Shown here piece by piece: positions 1 through 41,587 of a DNA stretch of 47,943 nt (its first letter is position 1; the number at the start of each line of letters is the position of its first letter). The stretch lies in NCBI GenBank assembly GCA_011049195.1, contig DSCG01000004.1:1-47943 (forward strand). The letters are read 5' to 3'. Origin of the DNA: an archaeon (GTDB lineage Archaea > SpSt-1190). The notes below the pieces were generated by a model that saw nothing but the letters and a program-made list of their open reading frames with translations, was not told the origin of the DNA and ran no database searches. Position numbers and translations under genes: made by a program.

Positions 1-201
1 ATCCATTATTTTTTTGACATTATCAAACTTGTTTTTTCGTTCCTCGTCTTGTTCAATCAGTTTCCGTTGACGTATGAATTCAAGAGTTTTCCCAACCGGT
101 TTCAACTCAAACCTCAAGGTTTTTGACAAATTATACAAATTTGTAAATCCGTCCCATACCGACCGTGGTGGTGTTATTTGGCTTTCTTGCATTTTTATCA
201 T
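1..201 (-). CDS. cas12a: Cas12a (Cpf1) type V-A CRISPR effector, first 67 codons only; the gene runs off the left edge
   Basis: Edge-truncated and absent from the supplied ORF track. Reverse-strand translation from the ATG at 201-199 is open to position 1: MIKMQESQITPPRSVWDGFTNLYNLSKTLRFELKPVGKTLEFIRQRKLIEQDEERKNKFDNVKKIMD. The block FTNLY-x-LSKTLRFEL-x-P-x-GKTL is the hallmark Cas12a N-terminus (compare AsCas12a FTNLYQVSKTLRFELIPQGKTL). A second ATG at 192-190 has GGAG 9 nt upstream and may be the true start. Confidence 0.85.
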   Translation of the reverse strand, partial: MIKMQESQITPPRSVWDGFTNLYNLSKTLRFELKPVGKTLEFIRQRKLIEQDEERKNKFDNVKKIMD

Positions 202-387
202 CTCCGAAGACCTTGCTCGTAAGCTTTCAAACCCAAAAACATCTGATTTTCTCTTTTAACTACAACAAAATTCCGCTTGCCTATAAGCGTCATGACTGTA
301 AAGTAAGAGGATATTTATAAGTCTCTCGACAACTATGCCAATAAGGTATCCTAACCTTTTCATACTCCCGGGAAACCCAGCTAAACG

Positions 388-430
388 CCCCAAAATCAAA
401 CCCCACACCACCCGGCCCCCACAAAACCCC
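388..430 (-). other. Run of C-tracts on the plus strand (G-tracts on the cas12a strand); G-quadruplex-prone spacer
   Basis: C3-5 tracts at 388-391, 401-404, 411-413, 416-420 and 427-430, with almost no G or T between them. More C-tracts follow to about 485. Confidence 0.4.
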
Positions 431-510
431 TTATCAACACCCAGAAAGCTAGATATCTTGAAATCCCCGAAAAACCCAAAACCCCTGACTTCATACCCGG
501 GGAAAAACAG

Positions 511-517
511 TTAAATA
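511..517 (+). promoter_or_regulatory. TATA-like box for the PRC-barrel gene (leaderless spacing)
   Basis: TTAAATA is centred about 24 nt upstream of the ATG at 538. Confidence 0.45.
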
Positions 518-537
518 GGCCCATATGTGAGGCAGCC

Positions 538-825
538 ATGGAAGAAAAGAGCATCACTCAGACTTACGGTAAGGCAGTTTACACTGACAACGGCGAGCTT
601 TTCGGCAGGGTGCAGGATGTGGTCATCGGCAAGTATTCCATCCACGGATGGGTGGTCTCCATCCCCCCCGAAAGCGCCCTCAAGAAAACCGTGCCCACCG
701 TGCGGGCGGTGATAGTGCCCCACAAGGCCATCAAGGCGGTTGGAGACATCATTATCACCAACTCCAAACTGGATGTGCCCGTCCCCCGGAGTAAGGACGA
801 CGAGATTGAGACCGAGGCCAAATAG
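538..825 (+). CDS. PRC-barrel domain protein
   Basis: 95-aa ORF. GKAVYTDNGELFGRVQDVVIGKYSIHGWVV fits the small PRC-barrel pattern (G..V....G..lG.v.D). Confidence 0.55.
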   Translation: MEEKSITQTYGKAVYTDNGELFGRVQDVVIGKYSIHGWVVSIPPESALKKTVPTVRAVIVPHKAIKAVGDIIITNSKLDVPVPRSKDDEIETEAK

Positions 826-869
826 CCCCGGGCCAAGTAAGGTTTTAAATCCGGCCGGCGGGTAGAGGC

Positions 870-3467
870 ATGGAAAAGGCTGAGCTCCGGAGAATGTTTT
901 CGGCCCAGCCTGATCAGTTTTACAATGTCCAGGTCCTGCGGAACATGGGCTTTGAACGGCGCCAGTGCCCCAAGTGCAAGGGCTGGTTCTGGTCCATGGG
1001 CAAGGAGACCTGCGGCGACACCAACTGCGAAGGGGCATACAGGTTCATCGGGGGCCGTGACTTGGGATGGGATTTCCTCCAGGCCGTTGAGAAATGGGAG
1101 AAATTTTTTGAAAAGCACAAACACAAGGTCGTGGAGCCCTACCCCATCGTGGCCAAATGGCGGCCTGACCTGTTCTTCGTGATTGCCAGCATTGCTGATT
1201 TTCAACCATGGGTTTTGAAAGGGATAGCTGAGCCCCCGGCCAACCCTCTGGTGGTGAGCCAGCCCTGTCTCAGATTCAATGATTTGGATAATGTGGGGAG
1301 AACCGGCAGGCACCTCACCCAGTTCTTCATGGGCGGCCAGCACGCCTTCAATCTCCGCGATTACTGGATGAATGAAACCCTCGGCTTCGGGGCCAGGTTC
1401 CTGATGGAGGAGCTGAAAATCCCCCAGGAGGAGCTGACCTACAAGGAGGACGTGTGGGCGGGTGGCGGCAACTTCGGGCCGTGTATTGAGGCCTTCGCCC
1501 ACGGCCTGGAAATAGTGAACCACGTTTTCATGCAGTTTGAGGACACCCCCGACGGCAACTACAAGCCCATGGACATGCGGGTGGTGGACACGGGCTGGGG
1601 CCTGGAAAGGGTGGCCTGGTATGCCTCGGCCAAGCCAAACACCTACGAGGCCATCTTCCCGAACGTGGCCAAACTTAGGCGGGACCTGAAGCTGGAAGTG
1701 GATTGGGAGGGACAGGCCAAATTCTGGAGGGAAATCGGGCTTTATGATGTTTCGGAAGGTGCTCACATGCCGGAATGGGTGAGGAAAGAGTTGGACCGGA
1801 TGCAACCCCTCATGGGTCTCTACACCATCCTGGACCACACCCGGGCCCTGGCTTTCGCCCTGGCTGACGGGGCCATCCCGAGTAATGTCGGGGGCGGGTA
1901 TAACCTGAGAAATTTACTGAGGCGTTCATTCACTATCAACCGCAAACACAAATTCGGCCTGAGCGTGGCGGATTTGATTAAGGAACATGCCAAATACATG
2001 GGCAAGAGATTCAAGAACCTCCGCGAGCTGCCTGATGTTGATGACATCGTGAAACTGGAAGAACAAAGATATGATGAGACCAGAACCAACGGCAGAAAGC
2101 TGGTGCTGAATCTGCTGGAAACCGGCAAACTCAAAAGCAAACTGGTTGAACTCTATGAGAGTCACGGCATGGACCCGGAGACAGTGGCCCAGCTGGCTAC
2201 CGAGAAGGGCCAGAAAGTGGAAGTGCCGGAGGACTTTTACATCAAACTCAAGGAGAAAGGTAAGGGAGGAGACAAGGAGACGGTGGAGGTGGACAGACAC
2301 CTGCCCGAAACCGAGCCCTTGTTCCATAAAATCCCTGTTTCCGAGGAGTTTGAGGCGTTAGTGACCTGGAGCCAGGGCAAGGAGCTGGTGCTGGACCAGA
2401 GCAACTTTTACCCGACCTCAGGTGGTCAGGACCATGATACCGGTATGCTGACCTGGGGCAAGGAGGGCAAGGCCAAGGTTGTGAAAGTCAGTAAAGAGGG
2501 CAAGGCCATCCTTCACAGATTGGACAAAGAGGCCCCAGCCGTAGGCACCAGAGTCAAAGGCAGGGTGGACGTGGTCAGGAGAATGGACCTGGCTCGGCAC
2601 CACACAGCAGTTCATGTTGTGAACGGAGCCGCCGTAAAGGTGTTGGGCAGTCACATCTGGCAGGCCGGAGCCAACAAGACCACGGAAAGGGCCCGGCTGG
2701 ATATCACTCATTACAAAGCAGTCACCCCCGCGGAGATGAGGGAGATTGAAAAGGTGGCCAACCAGGTGGTGCTGGAAAACCACAAGGTCCGCAAGATGGA
2801 GATGAACCGGACGGCGGCTGAGCAGAAGTTCGGCTTTCGGATTTATCAGGGCGGGGCTGTGCCCGGCGCCAAACTGAATATCATTCACATCCCCGGCCAT
2901 GATGCCGAGGCCTGTGGCGGGACCCACGTGGATTATACGGGGGAGATTGGGCTCATAAAATTAGCGGGGGCCAGCCGTATCCAGGACGGAGTGGTCCGGC
3001 TGGAGCTCATCGCCGGCATGAGGAGTCTTGAGAAAATGTGGAAACTCGAGGACACTCTGAATGATGCCGCTGTGGAAGCCAAGACAGAGCCCCAGGACCT
3101 GGCCAAGGCTGTCAGAAAACTGACCATCCGGGTCAAGAGCCTCACTAAAGGCGGGGGGGCGGGGACGGAAGGGATAAAGTTACAGGGCAAGGTCGGCGAC
3201 GTCCAGTGGGGCGTGGTGGATATGCCCTTCAAACTCATGGAAAACTCCGCCCAGCGGATACTCAAGGACACCGGCAACAAGGCCGTGGTGCTGGTCAACC
3301 GGGAGGGAGGGGTGGTAGCCGTCTCCACAGGGGAAATCAGTGCCCTGAAATTAGCACAGCAGATTTGTGCCAAGCTGGGCGGGGACGCCGGGGGAAATGA
3401 GAAGCTGGCCAGAGGCGGGGGCAGGGAGCCCGATAAGGCCGAGCAGGTGCTGGGGAAGTTGTTTTAA
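870..3467 (+). CDS. alaS: Alanine--tRNA ligase, archaeal type
   Basis: 865 aa. Archaeal AlaRS N-terminus (RRQCPKCKGWFWS...CGDTNCEG). Editing-site motifs HHTAVH (HxxxH) and EACGGTH (CxxxH). Length is typical. Confidence 0.95.
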   Translation: MEKAELRRMFSAQPDQFYNVQVLRNMGFERRQCPKCKGWFWSMGKETCGDTNCEGAYRFIGGRDLGWDFLQAVEKWEKFFEKHKHKVVEPYPIVAKWRPDLFFVIASIADFQPWVLKGIAEPPANPLVVSQPCLRFNDLDNVGRTGRHLTQFFMGGQHAFNLRDYWMNETLGFGARFLMEELKIPQEELTYKEDVWAGGGNFGPCIEAFAHGLEIVNHVFMQFEDTPDGNYKPMDMRVVDTGWGLERVAWYASAKPNTYEAIFPNVAKLRRDLKLEVDWEGQAKFWREIGLYDVSEGAHMPEWVRKELDRMQPLMGLYTILDHTRALAFALADGAIPSNVGGGYNLRNLLRRSFTINRKHKFGLSVADLIKEHAKYMGKRFKNLRELPDVDDIVKLEEQRYDETRTNGRKLVLNLLETGKLKSKLVELYESHGMDPETVAQLATEKGQKVEVPEDFYIKLKEKGKGGDKETVEVDRHLPETEPLFHKIPVSEEFEALVTWSQGKELVLDQSNFYPTSGGQDHDTGMLTWGKEGKAKVVKVSKEGKAILHRLDKEAPAVGTRVKGRVDVVRRMDLARHHTAVHVVNGAAVKVLGSHIWQAGANKTTERARLDITHYKAVTPAEMREIEKVANQVVLENHKVRKMEMNRTAAEQKFGFRIYQGGAVPGAKLNIIHIPGHDAEACGGTHVDYTGEIGLIKLAGASRIQDGVVRLELIAGMRSLEKMWKLEDTLNDAAVEAKTEPQDLAKAVRKLTIRVKSLTKGGGAGTEGIKLQGKVGDVQWGVVDMPFKLMENSAQRILKDTGNKAVVLVNREGGVVAVSTGEISALKLAQQICAKLGGDAGGNEKLARGGGREPDKAEQVLGKLF

Positions 3468-3498: not shown

Positions 3499-3891
3499 AT
3501 GTCTTTTAAAAAATTGAAATCTATCGGGGAAGAACTCGCCCAACTAAAGAGAGTTGTAAATGGAAAAACCCTTCCTTCAAGGGAGAGTATTGAATGTCGC
3601 TTAGAGATGATTAATAAATATATGAAAGACTATTTTGAAGAAACGGGAGAAACCATAGTTGACTACACTCAAATTAAAAATTACGACCCTTTGGTAGATA
3701 TACCTGAAGGCCTGTCCGGTCTAAAACATGCCTTGTTTAATTGCTGGAAAGTTTATCGAGATTTTGAAAAAACTTGGGAAGAAAATTACATAAAATGGGT
3801 ACGTAATCAAAATTGGGAAAGCTCACCTGAACGCGCCGGGCTGATTAAACACATTGAAGTTTTTGAGAGCACTTATCAAAAAGTTACTTGA
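3499..3891 (+). CDS. Hypothetical protein (A/T-rich ORFan)
   Basis: 130-aa ORF with ATG start and no motif I recognise. Visibly A/T-richer than both flanking genes. Its last 8 nt overlap the convergent DHH gene. Confidence 0.5.
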   Translation: MSFKKLKSIGEELAQLKRVVNGKTLPSRESIECRLEMINKYMKDYFEETGETIVDYTQIKNYDPLVDIPEGLSGLKHALFNCWKVYRDFEKTWEENYIKWVRNQNWESSPERAGLIKHIEVFESTYQKVT

Positions 3892-18045: not shown

Positions 18046-18080
18046 GCTTAATACATAAGATGCCGAATTCGGGCTCCCGG

Positions 18081-18310
18081 AGGGTTGGAAGGCACCAGAC
18101 CAGTCCTTTGCCCGGGAGAGGAGAAATGAGTTGGTCTGTGGTAAGGGTTGGAAGGCACCAGACCAGTCCTTTGCCCGGGAGAGGAGAAATGAGTTGGTCT
18201 GTGGTAAGGGTTGGAAGGCACCAGACCAGTCCTTTGCCCGGGAGTGGAGAAATGAGTTGGTCTGTGGTAAGGGTTGGAAGGCACCAGACCAGTCCTTTGC
18301 CCGGGAGAGG
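18081..18310. repeat. 63-bp tandem repeat, about 3.65 copies
   Basis: Unit: AGGGTTGGAAGGCACCAGACCAGTCCTTTGCCCGGGAGAGGAGAAATGAGTTGGTCTGTGGTA. Copies start at 18081, 18144, 18207 and 18270, and the last is cut off after CCCGGGAGAGG. I saw a single substitution (A to T at 18245). Each unit holds an inverted repeat, CAGACCA ... TGGTCTG. Confidence 0.95.
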
Positions 18311-18330
18311 GGGCGCTTGGTGGGCCGCGT

Positions 18331-18340
18331 TTTATTTAAA
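18331..18340 (+). promoter_or_regulatory. TATA-like box for the Lon-like protease gene (leaderless spacing)
   Basis: TTTATTTAAA is centred about 25 nt upstream of the ATG at 18361. Confidence 0.45.
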
Positions 18341-18360
18341 GTCCTGAATTTGGCAGTCCC

Positions 18361-20127
18361 ATGGGCAAAGGGCAGTCGGGGGTTCTCCGTTTCCGGCAGG
18401 TGAGCCTGTTGGCCCTGCTCATGTTGATACCCGTTGCCGCCGCCACCCTGACTGTGCCCGCGGTTGATAGCAACATGAAAGGGGTGTTGGTGGAACTAAC
18501 CTGCGAACTGGTGCCCGGTCAGGGGCGCGTTCTGGTGACCACCGAGCCCTACATAGGAGTGAGTACCCAGGAAAGTGAAAGAACCGCCCTTGCCGTGGTC
18601 AAGGCAAGTGAAGGTTCTGAAGATTTTGAAGGCAAAGATGTGTTATTCATTTTCAGCGCGGAGGGAACCGCCTCCATAGATGGCGGAAGTGCGGGTGCAG
18701 CCATGGCAGTGTGTCTGCTGGCCGAGCTCCGCAACCAGAGTCTGAGCCCGGGGGTCAGCATGACGGGGGGCGTTGATATGCTGGGCAGGGTGGTCCAGGT
18801 CGGGGGTGTGCTACCCAAAGCCGGGGCCGTCGCGGACTTTGCCAGAGTTTTCCTGATTCCGGCAGGCCAGCAGAGGAGCTTGACATACACCAAAACATTC
18901 ACCACTCCGCGTGAAGGCATTTACATAGAAGAAGTCACCCCTCTTGAAATCAATATTCCCGAATACGCTGCCGCCACCTGGAACCTGACAGTGGTTGAGG
19001 TGGCAAGTGTGGATGAGGCCTACTTGTGGTTCACGGGAGCGTGGGTGGATGCACGGGAAGTCCTGCAATTTGAACTGCCGGAGTTCACCCGTGAGCTGAC
19101 GGGAGTGGAGGCCCTGGCGGAGAAGGCCCTCAAGAGAGCTGAGAGTCTGGTGGGGAGTGCCAACGATACCCTGTCATCCAGTTATCTGGAACAGGCTAAA
19201 AATATACCCGCGGGCTATCCTTACACCCAGGCCAACCTGGCTTTTCTGGCAGCCGTCACCTCCCAGACCTCCTGGGATGATGTGGAGCCCGTGGCCCGGG
19301 AGTTACTCAAACAGATGAAAAGTCTGGAGCCAGGTGATCCTTACTGGCGGGCCGAGGCCGAACTGCGCCTCAGCTGGGCTCTGTTTAAGGAACAGAACCT
19401 CATGGCTCAGAAGGACTGGCTGATTATAGCCGCCAACATGCTAACTCTGGAAACCTTCACCAACGAGAGTGTGGATATGGCTAAGGTGGCCAGACTGGCC
19501 AACCAGCAGATAGTGGAGGCCAAACAGGTGGTGGAGGAAAGCCGGATGGTGGCGGGGCAGGAGCCCAGCGCCGATGCCGCTTTGGACCTGGCCCTTGAAA
19601 GTCTGGAAGATGAGCTTTATTTTGCAGCCCTTTACAATGCTCTGGATGCCATGGCCTGGGCGGAGGCCTCCAAGGGAGCAAGCCAGGACTACCTGAAGAG
19701 TATGTTTGAACAGGAGAAACAGACAGACTTTGCGGAAGCTTACAGGCGTCACGCCATTTATCTGCTCAACCAAGCTGGGGGCGACAGGGAGGTCATCAAG
19801 GGGGCTCTGTTTTCAGCCTACCGGGCCGACCTGAGGGATGAGATTTTTGAAGAGCTGGACAGGCTACCCTGGTCCCCGGAGTGGGGGGCCCTTGACTGGA
19901 AGTGGCTGGCCATATTGGGGTTGGGGGTTTATGTGGCAAGGGATCTAGTGACCAAAAACAGGAAGGGGGCCACCGCCAGAAAGACATCCGCCACTGCAGA
20001 ACAGGACATGGTGCTACTGGCCGAAGCCAAAGGAAAGGCAGTCGCCTTCCTGCAGGAAAAATTAAGAAACGGGGAAATCACCCGCGAGGCCTACATCCGG
20101 CTTGTCAGGAAGCTGGAAGGTCTGTAG
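18361..20127 (+). CDS. Secreted or membrane-tethered Lon-type (S16) serine peptidase domain protein with a C-terminal SHOCT-like tail
   Basis: Signal-like LLALLMLIPVAAA. The Lon proteolytic-domain dyad context is present: IDGGSAGAAMAVCLLAEL (Ser) and GRVVQVGGVLPKAGAVA (Lys). A long helical region follows, then TM WKWLAILGLGVYV, then EKLRNGEITREAYIRLVRKL (SHOCT-like). No AAA+ module. Confidence 0.7.
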   Translation: MGKGQSGVLRFRQVSLLALLMLIPVAAATLTVPAVDSNMKGVLVELTCELVPGQGRVLVTTEPYIGVSTQESERTALAVVKASEGSEDFEGKDVLFIFSAEGTASIDGGSAGAAMAVCLLAELRNQSLSPGVSMTGGVDMLGRVVQVGGVLPKAGAVADFARVFLIPAGQQRSLTYTKTFTTPREGIYIEEVTPLEINIPEYAAATWNLTVVEVASVDEAYLWFTGAWVDAREVLQFELPEFTRELTGVEALAEKALKRAESLVGSANDTLSSSYLEQAKNIPAGYPYTQANLAFLAAVTSQTSWDDVEPVARELLKQMKSLEPGDPYWRAEAELRLSWALFKEQNLMAQKDWLIIAANMLTLETFTNESVDMAKVARLANQQIVEAKQVVEESRMVAGQEPSADAALDLALESLEDELYFAALYNALDAMAWAEASKGASQDYLKSMFEQEKQTDFAEAYRRHAIYLLNQAGGDREVIKGALFSAYRADLRDEIFEELDRLPWSPEWGALDWKWLAILGLGVYVARDLVTKNRKGATARKTSATAEQDMVLLAEAKGKAVAFLQEKLRNGEITREAYIRLVRKLEGL

Positions 20128-23511: not shown

Positions 23512-23898
23512 TTATTGGTCTTCCCGCTTCAGGAGTTTTCTGCCCATAACTGTCCAATAGACAATTTCCTGACCGGCCTGGAACTCCATGCCCTCGGGGA
23601 TTTCCTCATCAAAGGTCTCATAACTCTGGGCGTCCATGAGCTGGACGGTGCTTCCGCCCACATTCAGCACCTGGGCCTGGCGCCGCTCAATAATAGGAAC
23701 CTCAACTTTGGTGCCACTGGGTTTGATGACTGACCGCTTGCTCTTGTCAAACAGGCTCACGGCGTCTATGCGGGACTTGGCGTGGCCGTGTTTACCGGGG
23801 GCCGAAGTCTGTATGCCTGTAATTTTGGAGGGATGACCGTCCAGTATGATAAAGCGTCCTTTGCGGAGCTTGACGACATCTTCAAAGGTGGTTTCCAT
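23512..23898 (-). CDS. eif5a: Translation initiation factor 5A
   Basis: The hypusination loop TSAPGKHGHAKSRI is present; 128 aa. Confidence 0.92.
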   Translation of the reverse strand: METTFEDVVKLRKGRFIILDGHPSKITGIQTSAPGKHGHAKSRIDAVSLFDKSKRSVIKPSGTKVEVPIIERRQAQVLNVGGSTVQLMDAQSYETFDEEIPEGMEFQAGQEIVYWTVMGRKLLKREDQ

Positions 23899-23991
23899 AA
23901 CAAAGCCAGAGGGCCGGGGTATAAAAGACTTGACATCAAAAGGATAGCAACTATTGAGTAATTAATTTAAACTCAAATTTTACAGCATGTC

Positions 23992-24540
23992 ATGATCACA
24001 GAATGGTCCATGAAGTTTGATGAATACATATCAGAAACCACCGGACAATGGGTTGAGACAACCATTTCTTTGGTTAATAAGTTCCAGAATTATCTTCATT
24101 TTCACAAAATCAAAGACAAACAGATTTATGTGGTTGACTTCTCACCGGACCTGAATAATCTCTTCCGGCCCGTAGAAACTCCCATGGAAGACGTTTTCTC
24201 AGTCATCGGGGCTACCCGAAAAGGCGAATATCATGACTTGTCGGATTTCAACGGAAGCATAGTGGCGGAGTTTGTGGTTTTTGAAACGGCACCCGAAAAA
24301 ATTGATGGGTTTCGGAAACAGATTTCAGAAAAATTTCCTGCTTTGAAGTATGACTTCAGAAAAATCGGGGGTGCCGGCTATGTATGTATCGAAACGGAAC
24401 CTTTGAAAAAGAATATCGTTGAACTGGATAAATTTGAATTCGAGAGCATTCTGGACGTTTATGGAGAACATCTGAAAAAGGTGTTGGAAGTTGCTCTGGA
24501 ACACACCCGGCAGGAAACTTTCTATGAGATAGAGATGTGA
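23992..24540 (+). CDS. Hypothetical protein (A/T-rich ORFan)
   Basis: 182-aa ORF, acidic, with no motif recognised. A/T-richer than its neighbours. Its stop abuts the convergent SAM synthetase stop. Confidence 0.5.
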   Translation: MITEWSMKFDEYISETTGQWVETTISLVNKFQNYLHFHKIKDKQIYVVDFSPDLNNLFRPVETPMEDVFSVIGATRKGEYHDLSDFNGSIVAEFVVFETAPEKIDGFRKQISEKFPALKYDFRKIGGAGYVCIETEPLKKNIVELDKFEFESILDVYGEHLKKVLEVALEHTRQETFYEIEM

Positions 24541-27590: not shown

Positions 27591-27665
27591 GGCTTGGGTG
27601 GTGTAGTCTGGTTAGCACGGGGGACTGTGGATCCCCCAGCCCGGGTCCGAATCCCGGCCCAGGCC
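27591..27665 (+). tRNA. tRNA-His (anticodon GTG) with genome-encoded G-1
   Basis: Hand-folded cloverleaf. G-1 (27591) pairs with C73 (27665). Acceptor stem gcttggg/cccaggc. D stem gtgt/gcac with loop agtctggtta. Anticodon stem gggga/tcccc with loop ctGTGga. 4-nt variable loop. T stem ccggg/cccgg with loop tccgaat. No encoded CCA and no intron. Confidence 0.9.
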
Positions 27666-27685
27666 CAACGGAAATCCGTTGACAC
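27642..27685 (+). repeat. Direct repeat copy 1: tRNA-His T-arm, 3' acceptor strand and 20 nt of 3' flank
   Basis: CGGGTCCGAATCCCGGCCCAGGCCCAACGGAAATCCGTTGACAC. The 3' flank contains the small hairpin AACGG-aaat-CCGTT. Confidence 0.95.
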
Positions 27686-27757
27686 TTTTGACCGCCTTCG
27701 CTCACGCCACGCGCTCGGCGGTCAGTGGGGGTCTTAAAGGGATGAAGCCCCTTACTT

Positions 27758-27801
27758 CGGGTCTGAATCCCGGCCCAGGCCCAACGGAAATCCGTTGACA
27801 C
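27758..27801 (+). repeat. Direct repeat copy 2 (43 of 44 identical), 116 bp downstream of copy 1
   Basis: CGGGTCTGAATCCCGGCCCAGGCCCAACGGAAATCCGTTGACAC, with a single C-to-T difference. No matching 5' acceptor strand lies upstream, so this is not a complete tRNA. Confidence 0.95.
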
Positions 27802-37375: not shown

Positions 37376-38212
37376 ATGGGTATGGCATCTAACGCAGGCA
37401 TGGCATCTAACGCAACCATGCGACCCGTAAAGGGGGGCTGGGAGATTTATTTAGATACGGGCTTGAGCTTCAGTTTGAATGGAAAGGGGTTCAACTCCAT
37501 AGGAGAAGGGAAACATCCTGTTTTTGAGGTGGCAGAGGCATTCCAATACAAAAAGGGGGTGGAGGGAGCCGAGATGCCTGAAGGTTGGGAGTTCCGCTGG
37601 AACAAACTGGTTCCAACCAACCCTGAAAAAGAGGTGCCTGCCAACGCCGCAGTCAGATATGCTGGGATGGACCGCTATCAATTTCAAAAAAGGACTTTCA
37701 TTAACAAAGAGACCCCTAAAAATTTGGGTGAAATAGGGGAGGAACCCAAGAAGGAGTTGATAAAAACTCTCAATTCTTATGTTGATGCCAGAGCCACTGG
37801 AAAATCTTTCAAGAAAGCCTTTGAAAATAAAGAGACCAGTTATGTCAAATTGGCCCAAAAAATGGAAGGTATACTGGTTAAGTTCGGGGACCAGATTGTT
37901 GATGTTCTGCCTCTTGAGTCTCTGGTTAAGTATTCGGATGTTAAAGGTTTGAAAGGTACCTTTGAAAAGAAAGACCTTGAAAAAATTCACAAAGAGCATT
38001 ATGCAGAAGAAGCAAGTAAACAAGGGGGTATAGTCACCTACGTTTTCCCCCAGTTGGTTCAACTGAACGGAAAAATCCAATTACTGTCAGTAGATGAGCG
38101 GAAGTTCAGGAAAATTTATGGGGAAAAGGCTACCGAACTCCTGGATTACACGGCGGGTGGTGGAACGCTTTCTCACAACATCACCCTGGACACCAACGGC
38201 TCCATACGCTGA
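37376..38212 (+). CDS. Hypothetical protein (A/T-richer ORFan)
   Basis: 278-aa Lys/Glu-rich ORF with no motif recognised. The N-terminus carries an in-frame duplication (MASNAG MASNAT). Confidence 0.5.
   Translation: MGMASNAGMASNATMRPVKGGWEIYLDTGLSFSLNGKGFNSIGEGKHPVFEVAEAFQYKKGVEGAEMPEGWEFRWNKLVPTNPEKEVPANAAVRYAGMDRYQFQKRTFINKETPKNLGEIGEEPKKELIKTLNSYVDARATGKSFKKAFENKETSYVKLAQKMEGILVKFGDQIVDVLPLESLVKYSDVKGLKGTFEKKDLEKIHKEHYAEEASKQGGIVTYVFPQLVQLNGKIQLLSVDERKFRKIYGEKATELLDYTAGGGTLSHNITLDTNGSIR
37382..37414 (+). repeat. 18-bp in-frame tandem duplication at the 5' end of ORF 37376
   Basis: ATGGCATCTAACGCA occurs at 37382-37396 and again at 37400-37414. Confidence 0.9.
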
Positions 38213-41528: not shown

Positions 41529-41587
41529 GTCCCGAGTGCGAAGCACGAGGCTAGCTTGAGGGCCAGTCCCGAGTGCGAAGCACGAGG
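41529..41587. repeat. Two identical 22-nt direct repeats, 37-bp period
   Basis: GTCCCGAGTGCGAAGCACGAGG occurs at 41529-41550 and 41566-41587. Each can fold as a GTGC-gaa-GCAC hairpin flanked by tandem G-A/A-G positions and C-G pairs. Both are followed by CTTGAG. The flanking GGGGGC (41517-41522) and GCCCCC (41592-41597) could close a larger structure. Confidence 0.9.

Follow-up and report, generated by a model that had tools for sequence, protein, structure and literature searches.

Predicted start of a type V-A cas12a gene in foreign, AT-rich DNA at a contig end of a DPANN archaeon

We analyzed a 47,943-nt stretch of archaeal DNA (contig DSCG01000004.1 of assembly GCA_011049195.1, SpSt-1190; referred to below as the window) and found at its left end the beginning of a gene for Cas12a, the effector of type V-A CRISPR systems, which is a single-protein DNA endonuclease of the RuvC type guided by CRISPR RNA (crRNA). 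Judged from its sequence, positions 201 to 1 on the minus strand are the genuine start of a cas12a gene. The explanation that we prefer, and hold with good confidence, is that this gene start belongs to a DPANN archaeon which acquired it laterally in a variable slot to the left of a PRC-barrel/alaS gene pair. The window is the complete contig and the gene is cut by a real contig end. The contig is also found in JGI/IMG, and in GenBank it is part of a TPA metagenome-assembled genome in which AlaRS is HDR53094.1. An earlier note on this DNA, made from the letters alone, had described the open reading frame (ORF) as leaving the window at its edge, and the corresponding contig in ENA stops at the same base.

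The translated reverse complement of positions 1-201 is a stop-free open frame that runs off the contig end; the 67 codons listed in the earlier note were reproduced exactly. TIGR04330 (cas_Cpf1, an NCBIfam equivalog) matches this fragment with E=1.1e-18, residues 18-67 falling on profile positions 3-52 of 1288. A phmmer search of PDB returned 26 distinct sequences, all Cas12a/Cpf1 (E 8.5e-15 to 3e-07; 45-57 bits). Twenty-four of the 26 align at their own residues ~2-60 and the other two are slightly offset through N-terminal extensions; the best match is ReChb, a reconstructed ancestral Cas12a. In an exhaustive HMMER search of 1.84 billion cluster representatives, 612 matches were obtained at E<=1e-3, and the genuine ones among the 150 best match through their own N-termini. 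On TIGR04330, the seven full-length representatives closest in this search score 1110-1308 bits over the full length (cut-off 300). Aligned without gaps to twelve of the nearest N-termini, the fragment keeps every invariant position of the clade (12/12) and every near-invariant one (8/8). The Cas12a N-terminus recognized in the earlier note is thus borne out by profile, structure database and clade residues, a match too strong for chance. Two matches were discarded: the nominal top HMMER match (P0018, 2038 aa, E=2e-20) stems from the translation of a satellite repeat, and the sole Pfam match, Phage_rep_org_N (E=0.028, below the cut-off), is noise.

The fragment covers what we take to be the WED-I strands (FTNLYNLSKTLRFELKP) and the first part of the REC1 helix, with domain names carried over from the AsCas12a and FnCas12a structures. 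It shares with FnCas12a, AsCas12a and LbCas12a the FTNxYxLSKTLRFELxPxGKT block and the WED-I/REC1 segment, in register. It differs from these three enzymes in an N-terminal extension of 5-8 residues (MIKMQESQ...), in a host that is an archaeon and not a bacterium, and in a window that has no array or adaptation genes. Two candidate starts were found, with a GGAG (205-202, read from the sequence) placed 9 nt ahead of the second ATG. The features of the region are as follows.

1 to 201, minus strand: 5' end of cas12a, 67 codons from ATG 201-199 or 64 from ATG 192-190; open at the contig end.
202 to 350, minus strand: AT-rich region upstream of cas12a, delimited by the GC profile, with the GGAG, a TATA-like site and a hairpin plus T-run inside.
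340 to 360, no strand: approximate compositional boundary between the AT-rich cas12a side and the GC-rich host side, from the GC profile.
538 to 3467, plus strand: host anchor block, outside the CRISPR system, made up of a PRC-barrel gene (538-825) and an archaeal alaS (870-3467).

The cas12a fragment is laterally acquired, as indicated by its foreign composition and a break in synteny. The GC content of positions 1-201 is 0.353 and the window mean is 0.537 (z=-3.4; 0.4% of 200-nt windows are as low), in agreement with the AT-richness remarked upon in the earlier note. GC content at third codon positions (GC3) is 0.37 in the fragment versus 0.59-0.76 in ten host genes. In 60-nt steps the GC content stays at 0.33-0.40 up to ~330 and at 0.47-0.62 from 331 onward. 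The earlier note had proposed lateral acquisition from base composition; GC and GC3 support this, and gene order adds a second line of evidence. Five of eight relatives (described below) carry genes for proteasome-alpha (239 aa, minus strand), an S-adenosylmethionine (SAM) methyltransferase (186 aa), PRC-barrel, alaS and DHH in this order. cas12a occupies the position of the methyltransferase in those five, and neither the methyltransferase nor proteasome-alpha is found anywhere in the 48-kb window. The remaining three relatives have an FkbM methyltransferase, an amidohydrolase with a lectin-domain protein, or an SMC-type ATPase at this place. Since its contents differ among relatives, the slot is variable in this lineage. 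In the eight relatives no Cas12a N-terminus was found near alaS, and their slots contain no cas genes.

The AT-rich region 202-350 was presumably co-acquired with cas12a. It contains a TATA-like ATATTTATAAG at 311-321 and, on the minus strand, a hairpin followed by a T-run at 289-265, and it may serve as a promoter or leader, judged from these motifs. The number of terminator-like sites such as the one at 289-274 was not above shuffle expectation. A sigma-70 promoter scan gave nothing, and that model is inapplicable to archaea. We also considered AATTT....TGTTGTAG (278-265, minus strand) as a degenerate CRISPR repeat or regulatory mini-array and rejected it, since its score is matched by 73% of shuffled sequences and by 40% of the other windows.

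The host was placed by means of the genes next to the cas12a fragment. The PRC-barrel gene matches Pfam PRC (E=2e-07) and alaS matches TIGR03683, archaeal AlaRS (E=7.7e-258). A scan with AlaRS over one genome per GTDB r232 species retrieved eight archaeal loci (L003-L010), all from DPANN-labelled metagenome-assembled genomes (MAGs), with 58-71% identity. The remaining AlaRS matches are bacterial, at most 33% identical and ~28% for the best-ranked. The PRC-barrel protein is 63-83% identical and kept in all eight relatives, and the DHH phosphoesterase is 51-64% identical and kept in 6/8. The PRC-barrel/alaS pair is syntenic in 8/8 and gene order is kept wherever the contigs reach. Of the eight MAGs, three carry the label Candidatus Undinarchaeota and the other five that of Candidatus Altiarchaeota (DPANN bins); NCBI taxonomy places Undinarchaeota within the DPANN kingdom Nanobdellati. 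The three Undinarchaeota-labelled loci have a GC content of 52-54%, and the window has ~53.6%. Because of the AlaRS, PRC and DHH identities and the conserved gene order, the host is, by sequence comparison, a DPANN archaeon of the Undinarchaeota/"Altiarchaeota" neighbourhood and not a member of Methanomassiliicoccales. The best AlaRS identity is 71%, and the host species is therefore not represented among the GTDB r232 representatives. Elsewhere in the window we found archaeal-type housekeeping genes: RLI/ABCE1, EF-1alpha, RFC small subunit, AMP phosphorylase, archaeal methionine adenosyltransferase and HerA-NurA. Together with AlaRS, these matches (HerA-NurA aside) agree with the placing of the fragment beside archaeal housekeeping genes in the earlier note.

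The best N-terminal matches of the fragment show 63-67% identity and are relatives of the closest full-length representative (P0024). The fragment and the closest N-termini have a common (I/V/L)WD-x-FTN start. Among these N-termini are Ca. Woesearchaeota MCF7860954.1 (P0183) and a representative (P0188) whose cluster mates are labelled Ca. Diapherotrites and "archaeon". Ca. ainarchaeum MDD3976473.1 (P0173) is more distant, with 54% identity. Another representative (P0177) is on a 939-kb contig beside an Orc1/Cdc6-type replication gene, and this contig is therefore archaeal. For the nearest-neighbour test ~55 aligned residues were available, which do not suffice for a phylogeny, and the majority of the top matches have no taxon label. 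In all three relative loci examined (L084-L086) the gene order is cas12a-cas4-cas1-cas2. In two of them an array follows (39 and 32 repeats) whose repeats end in AATTTCTACTATTGTAGAT, the Cas12a 5'-handle; the third has a single repeat. Their GC contents are 24%, 32% and 37%, and cas12a matches its flanks.

The DPANN-associated Cas12a clade is a candidate for the closest known group: the highest N-terminal identities are among its members, its coding sequence is AT-rich and its hosts are DPANN-labelled; the membership of the fragment in it is judged from ~55 residues. It differs from these relatives in two respects. In their genomes cas12a has the GC content of its flanks, whereas here it lies 18 points under the host, and the host is a different, GC-richer lineage with Undinarchaeota-labelled relatives. 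A fragment of 35% GC in a host of 54% GC is what is expected of a recent transfer from an AT-rich donor. The Cas12a enzymes of Methanomassiliicoccales (CMtCas12a of Ca. Methanoplasma termitum; Ca. Methanomethylophilus alvus) are likewise examples of a mostly bacterial class 2 effector in archaeal hosts, but in the phylum Thermoplasmatota and not in DPANN. No Methanomassiliicoccales name was found among the named matches in the 120 best relatives of the closest full-length protein, most of which are unnamed.

We propose that cas12a came by lateral transfer, most likely from an AT-rich donor with the same Cas12a clade, several members of which are from DPANN archaea, and that it was inserted into, or replaced the content of, the variable slot on the left side of the conserved PRC-barrel/alaS genes. 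If the three relatives that are closest and fully sequenced are a guide, the DNA missing on the left would hold another ~3.6 kb of an intact cas12a (REC, PI, RuvC I-III and Nuc), probably followed by cas4-cas1-cas2 and possibly by an array whose ~36-nt repeats end in AATTTCTACT-N-TTGTAGAT. The RuvC motifs and Nuc would lie some 2.5-3.7 kb past the contig end. If active, as in other members of the family, the complete protein would process its own pre-crRNA (precursor CRISPR RNA), bind a T-rich protospacer adjacent motif (PAM), open an R-loop and cleave the two DNA strands at a single RuvC site, and adaptation would be carried out by Cas4-Cas1-Cas2. The most far-reaching version of this proposal, to which we assign slightly less than an even chance, is a complete and active V-A system past the contig end, the first in an Undinarchaeota-like DPANN branch and recently transferred from an AT-rich Woesearchaeota/Diapherotrites-like lineage.

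Other parts of a CRISPR locus were searched for in the whole 47.9-kb window. No TCTAC-N(3-6)-GTAGA stem, no spaced repeat array and no CRISPR family of Rfam were found there. cas families, including cas1, cas2 and cas4, are missing from the best 25 of 80 matched PADLOC families for the 59 window ORFs. Within this scope the searches agree with the earlier note, which had found no array, cas1, cas2 or cas4 in the window. The array of the relatives lies downstream of cas2, which here corresponds to a place left of the contig end. Since both the array and cas4-cas1-cas2 of the relatives fall where the window has ended, we do not count their absence in the window against the locus. The PADLOC matches that did occur (HerA, DndA/SspA, mad3/mad8 and a weak CARF) come from look-alike housekeeping genes (HerA-NurA and an IscS/NifS cysteine desulfurase) and do not form a defence locus.

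Several points weigh against a laterally acquired, genuine cas12a gene in this host. The visible part is ~5% of a Cas12a, and RuvC, Nuc and PI lie outside it. The TIGR04330 score (66.4 bits from 50 aligned residues) is necessarily below the whole-protein cut-off of 300 bits, which is out of reach for 67 residues. No public contig extends cas12a to the left. Over 13.5 kb the ENA contig (48,523 nt) shares 99.94% identity with the window, and its end coincides with window base 1. A Logan contig (SRR7787558, k=31) is 99.97% identical and ends at window position 303, inside the AT-rich upstream segment and 302 nt short of the ends of the contigs from ENA and from the Joint Genome Institute (JGI)/NCBI. 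Exact look-ups with the PRC-barrel and AlaRS proteins found only contigs that stop at window position 1 or 303. With the fragment as query, a metagenome scan gave one match (52%) and no extension, a word-indexed search gave only fragments with at most 69% identity, the exhaustive HMMER search gave nothing above 68% identity, and scans of viral contigs with protein and DNA were empty. Every assembly ends at or short of the same base within cas12a. This common breakpoint could reflect a fork of the assembly graph in cas12a (strain heterogeneity, allelic variants, an insertion or deletion in part of the population, or a second cas12a copy in the community), or else reads common to the assemblies. 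As all three may go back to one set of reads, the breakpoint is not counted as independent evidence. For the assignment to Undinarchaeota we depend on the labels that submitters gave to the nearest MAGs, and these disagree (3 Undinarchaeota, 5 Altiarchaeota) despite the common gene order.

The strongest alternative, which we consider unlikely, is that the gene is broken and encodes no functional effector, whether it is a pseudogene, was split by a mobile element, or is all that stayed behind when the CRISPR locus was deleted. Such genes do exist among the matches, which is a further point against our interpretation: three short, N-terminus-only Cas12a ORFs lie in long contigs and are interrupted genes, with the stop or frameshift at about codons 70-110. 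One (P0004, 72 aa) has an in-frame stop followed by a 1211-aa remainder, the second (P0012, 112 aa) is followed by a 1210-aa ORF, and the third (P0009) is likewise split. One cluster (cluster 4, Diapherotrites) has Cas12a pieces of 201, 272 and 392 aa on contigs of equal length (11,667 nt), probably one contig. The ending of all assemblies at or before the same base in cas12a is also what a polymorphic insertion or deletion would produce. Against a broken gene, the 67 codons are free of stops and gaps, keep every invariant and near-invariant residue of the clade and include a start codon (the second ATG) that has GGAG 9 nt upstream. The last 140 nt of the contig are in-register cas12a coding sequence and not the end of a repeat element, and most Cas12a N-termini in the databases belong to full-length genes.

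It is very improbable that the gene encodes Cas12a2 (V-A2, an RNA-triggered abortive-infection nuclease) or another Cas12a-like variant with the same N-terminus. The N-termini and RuvC are conserved in Cas12a and Cas12a2, which differ only at the bridge-helix position and in Nuc, and SuCas12a2 is reported to have the N-terminal fold and the crRNA repeat in common with Cas12a (PMC9811890). The distinguishing features lie outside the window and the N-terminus is common to both families, so the N-terminus alone cannot formally separate them. The N-terminal profile of the fragment's clade nevertheless scores 75-117 bits on solved Cas12a and 14.9 bits (E=0.17, 17 residues aligned) on PDB entry 8d49, the SuCas12a2 structure. 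This is a difference of at least 60 bits, and the single-sequence PDB search with the fragment did not retrieve 8d49 at E<=10. PF18510 (NUC) is present in all 120 best relatives of the closest full-length representative, including the top N-terminal matches of the fragment, and the seven closest representatives pass the Cas12a equivalog cut-off over their full length.

We attach equally little weight to an assembly or binning chimera, in which a cas12a piece from another AT-rich organism in the sample was wrongly attached to the GC-rich archaeal contig. In favour of it, GC content shifts abruptly at ~340-360, the piece sits at the very contig end, its closest relatives are in genomes of 24-37% GC and the assemblies may share reads, but the junction sequence is the same in the ENA and JGI/NCBI assemblies, the k=31 Logan contig reaches ~50 nt into the AT-rich segment without mismatch, and a de Bruijn join requires a long common k-mer, which unrelated genomes would not supply. 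Moreover, the same contig has an insert of equal AT-richness (3499-3891) with host genes on either side, and this genome therefore does carry foreign AT-rich segments.

This insert and some other segments near the cas12a fragment deserve description in their own right. Positions 3499-3891 (plus strand) are an orphan 130-aa ORF with GC 0.356 and GC3 0.31 between alaS and the DHH gene, two genes that abut in the relatives examined (shown for L003). The ORF has no homologue in the eight relatives and no Pfam or PHROGs match, and it was part of the set scanned with PADLOC. It looks like a second foreign insert flanking the PRC-barrel/alaS pair. Two more AT-rich patches (GC 0.34-0.40) at 23851-24350 and 37651-37950 overlap ORFs 23992-24540 and 37376-38212 and may be additional foreign segments. 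Between the AT-rich region and the PRC-barrel gene, positions 357-522 (plus strand) form a strongly C-rich, G-poor intergenic stretch, bracketed by an imperfect 17-nt direct repeat (TTCATACTCCCGGGAAA at 359 and TTCATACCCGGGGAAAA at 490). The repeat is a weak two-copy match with one island edge visible. In the one relative examined (L003) only ~20 nt are found at this position. Rfam gave nothing on 357-522, which could be an insertion scar or an unannotated small RNA. No integrase is present in the DNA adjacent to the visible island edge.

Further observations were made at loci of Cas12a relatives. In the Woesearchaeota contig (L085, 2812-9014) genes for a CARF/Card1-like protein, a UvrD-PD-(D/E)XK helicase-nuclease and a STAND-type ATPase lie upstream of the cas12a operon, and a UvrD-PDDEXK gene is also found after the array in L086. 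DPANN V-A loci may be recurrently associated with other defence genes. In a Sphingobacteriales MAG (JADJGB010000001.1; L087, 6001-9858) and in a second locus (L088, 6001-9934) cas12a is divided between an N-terminal ORF of 72 or 112 aa and a remainder of ~1210 aa. What breaks the gene in L087 is one in-frame stop behind codon 72, past which Cas12a homology goes on in the same frame. The stop could be a nonsense mutation, a sequencing error or a read-through codon.

Three repeats lie farther away in the window. At 18081-18332 (plus strand), just upstream of a 588-aa ORF (18361-20127), there are four tandem copies of a 63-nt unit (100/100/98/79% identity). Within each unit are GGAGAGGAGAAATG, a Shine-Dalgarno-like motif with an ATG, and an internal inverted repeat (CACCAGACCA...TGGTCTGTGG), and the 63-nt period preserves the reading frame via ORF 18060-18344. 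At 27592-27801 (plus strand) the last 25 nt of tRNA-His(GTG) (27592-27666) and 19 nt downstream are repeated 116 nt on (copy at 27758-27801; 44 nt, 98% identity). This duplication resembles an att site, e.g., the scar of an integration or excision at a tRNA gene. An exact 22-nt direct repeat, GTCCCGAGTGCGAAGCACGAGG, occurs at 41529-41550 and 41566-41587 with 37-nt spacing and lies between two convergent or adjacent ORFs.

According to the 2025 CRISPR classification update (PMC12669027), archaea show a scattered distribution of class 2 systems, II-D being common in DPANN. A recent genome survey found them in only 25 archaeal genomes from four phyla, Undinarchaeota not among them; V-A was recorded in Thermoplasmatota, and V-A or V-F1 in seven Nanobdellota (DPANN) genomes (10.1101/2025.11.27.691053, preprint). 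Beyond this survey, the collection of papers that we searched yielded none on V-A systems in DPANN. GenBank holds Cas12a proteins annotated by the Prokaryotic Genome Annotation Pipeline (PGAP) from Woesearchaeota, Diapherotrites, 'Ca. ainarchaeum' and unclassified archaeal MAGs. The earlier statement that few archaeal Cas12a loci are known is true, but the scarcity is less stark than it had appeared in view of these GenBank entries and the seven Nanobdellota genomes (V-A or V-F1). Cas12a in DPANN is rare but already recorded. The fragment, at 5% of a gene, is possibly the first Cas12a for its host lineage.

With 67 codons in hand, the present value of the finding is mainly that of a pointer: the MAG and its reads merit targeted reassembly. 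A further Cas12a orthologue from a compact host could be of use in tool development. Class 2 CRISPR effectors are rare in archaea, and Cas12a in an Undinarchaeota-like lineage would add a phylum to the list. It would also document the transfer of a single-effector immune system among DPANN archaea, tiny-genome organisms that usually shed such systems. If the complete system is present and was transferred as proposed, class 2 effectors would be circulating among ultra-small symbiotic archaea, and the assembly break within the gene would mark strain-level gain, loss or allelic turnover in the population.

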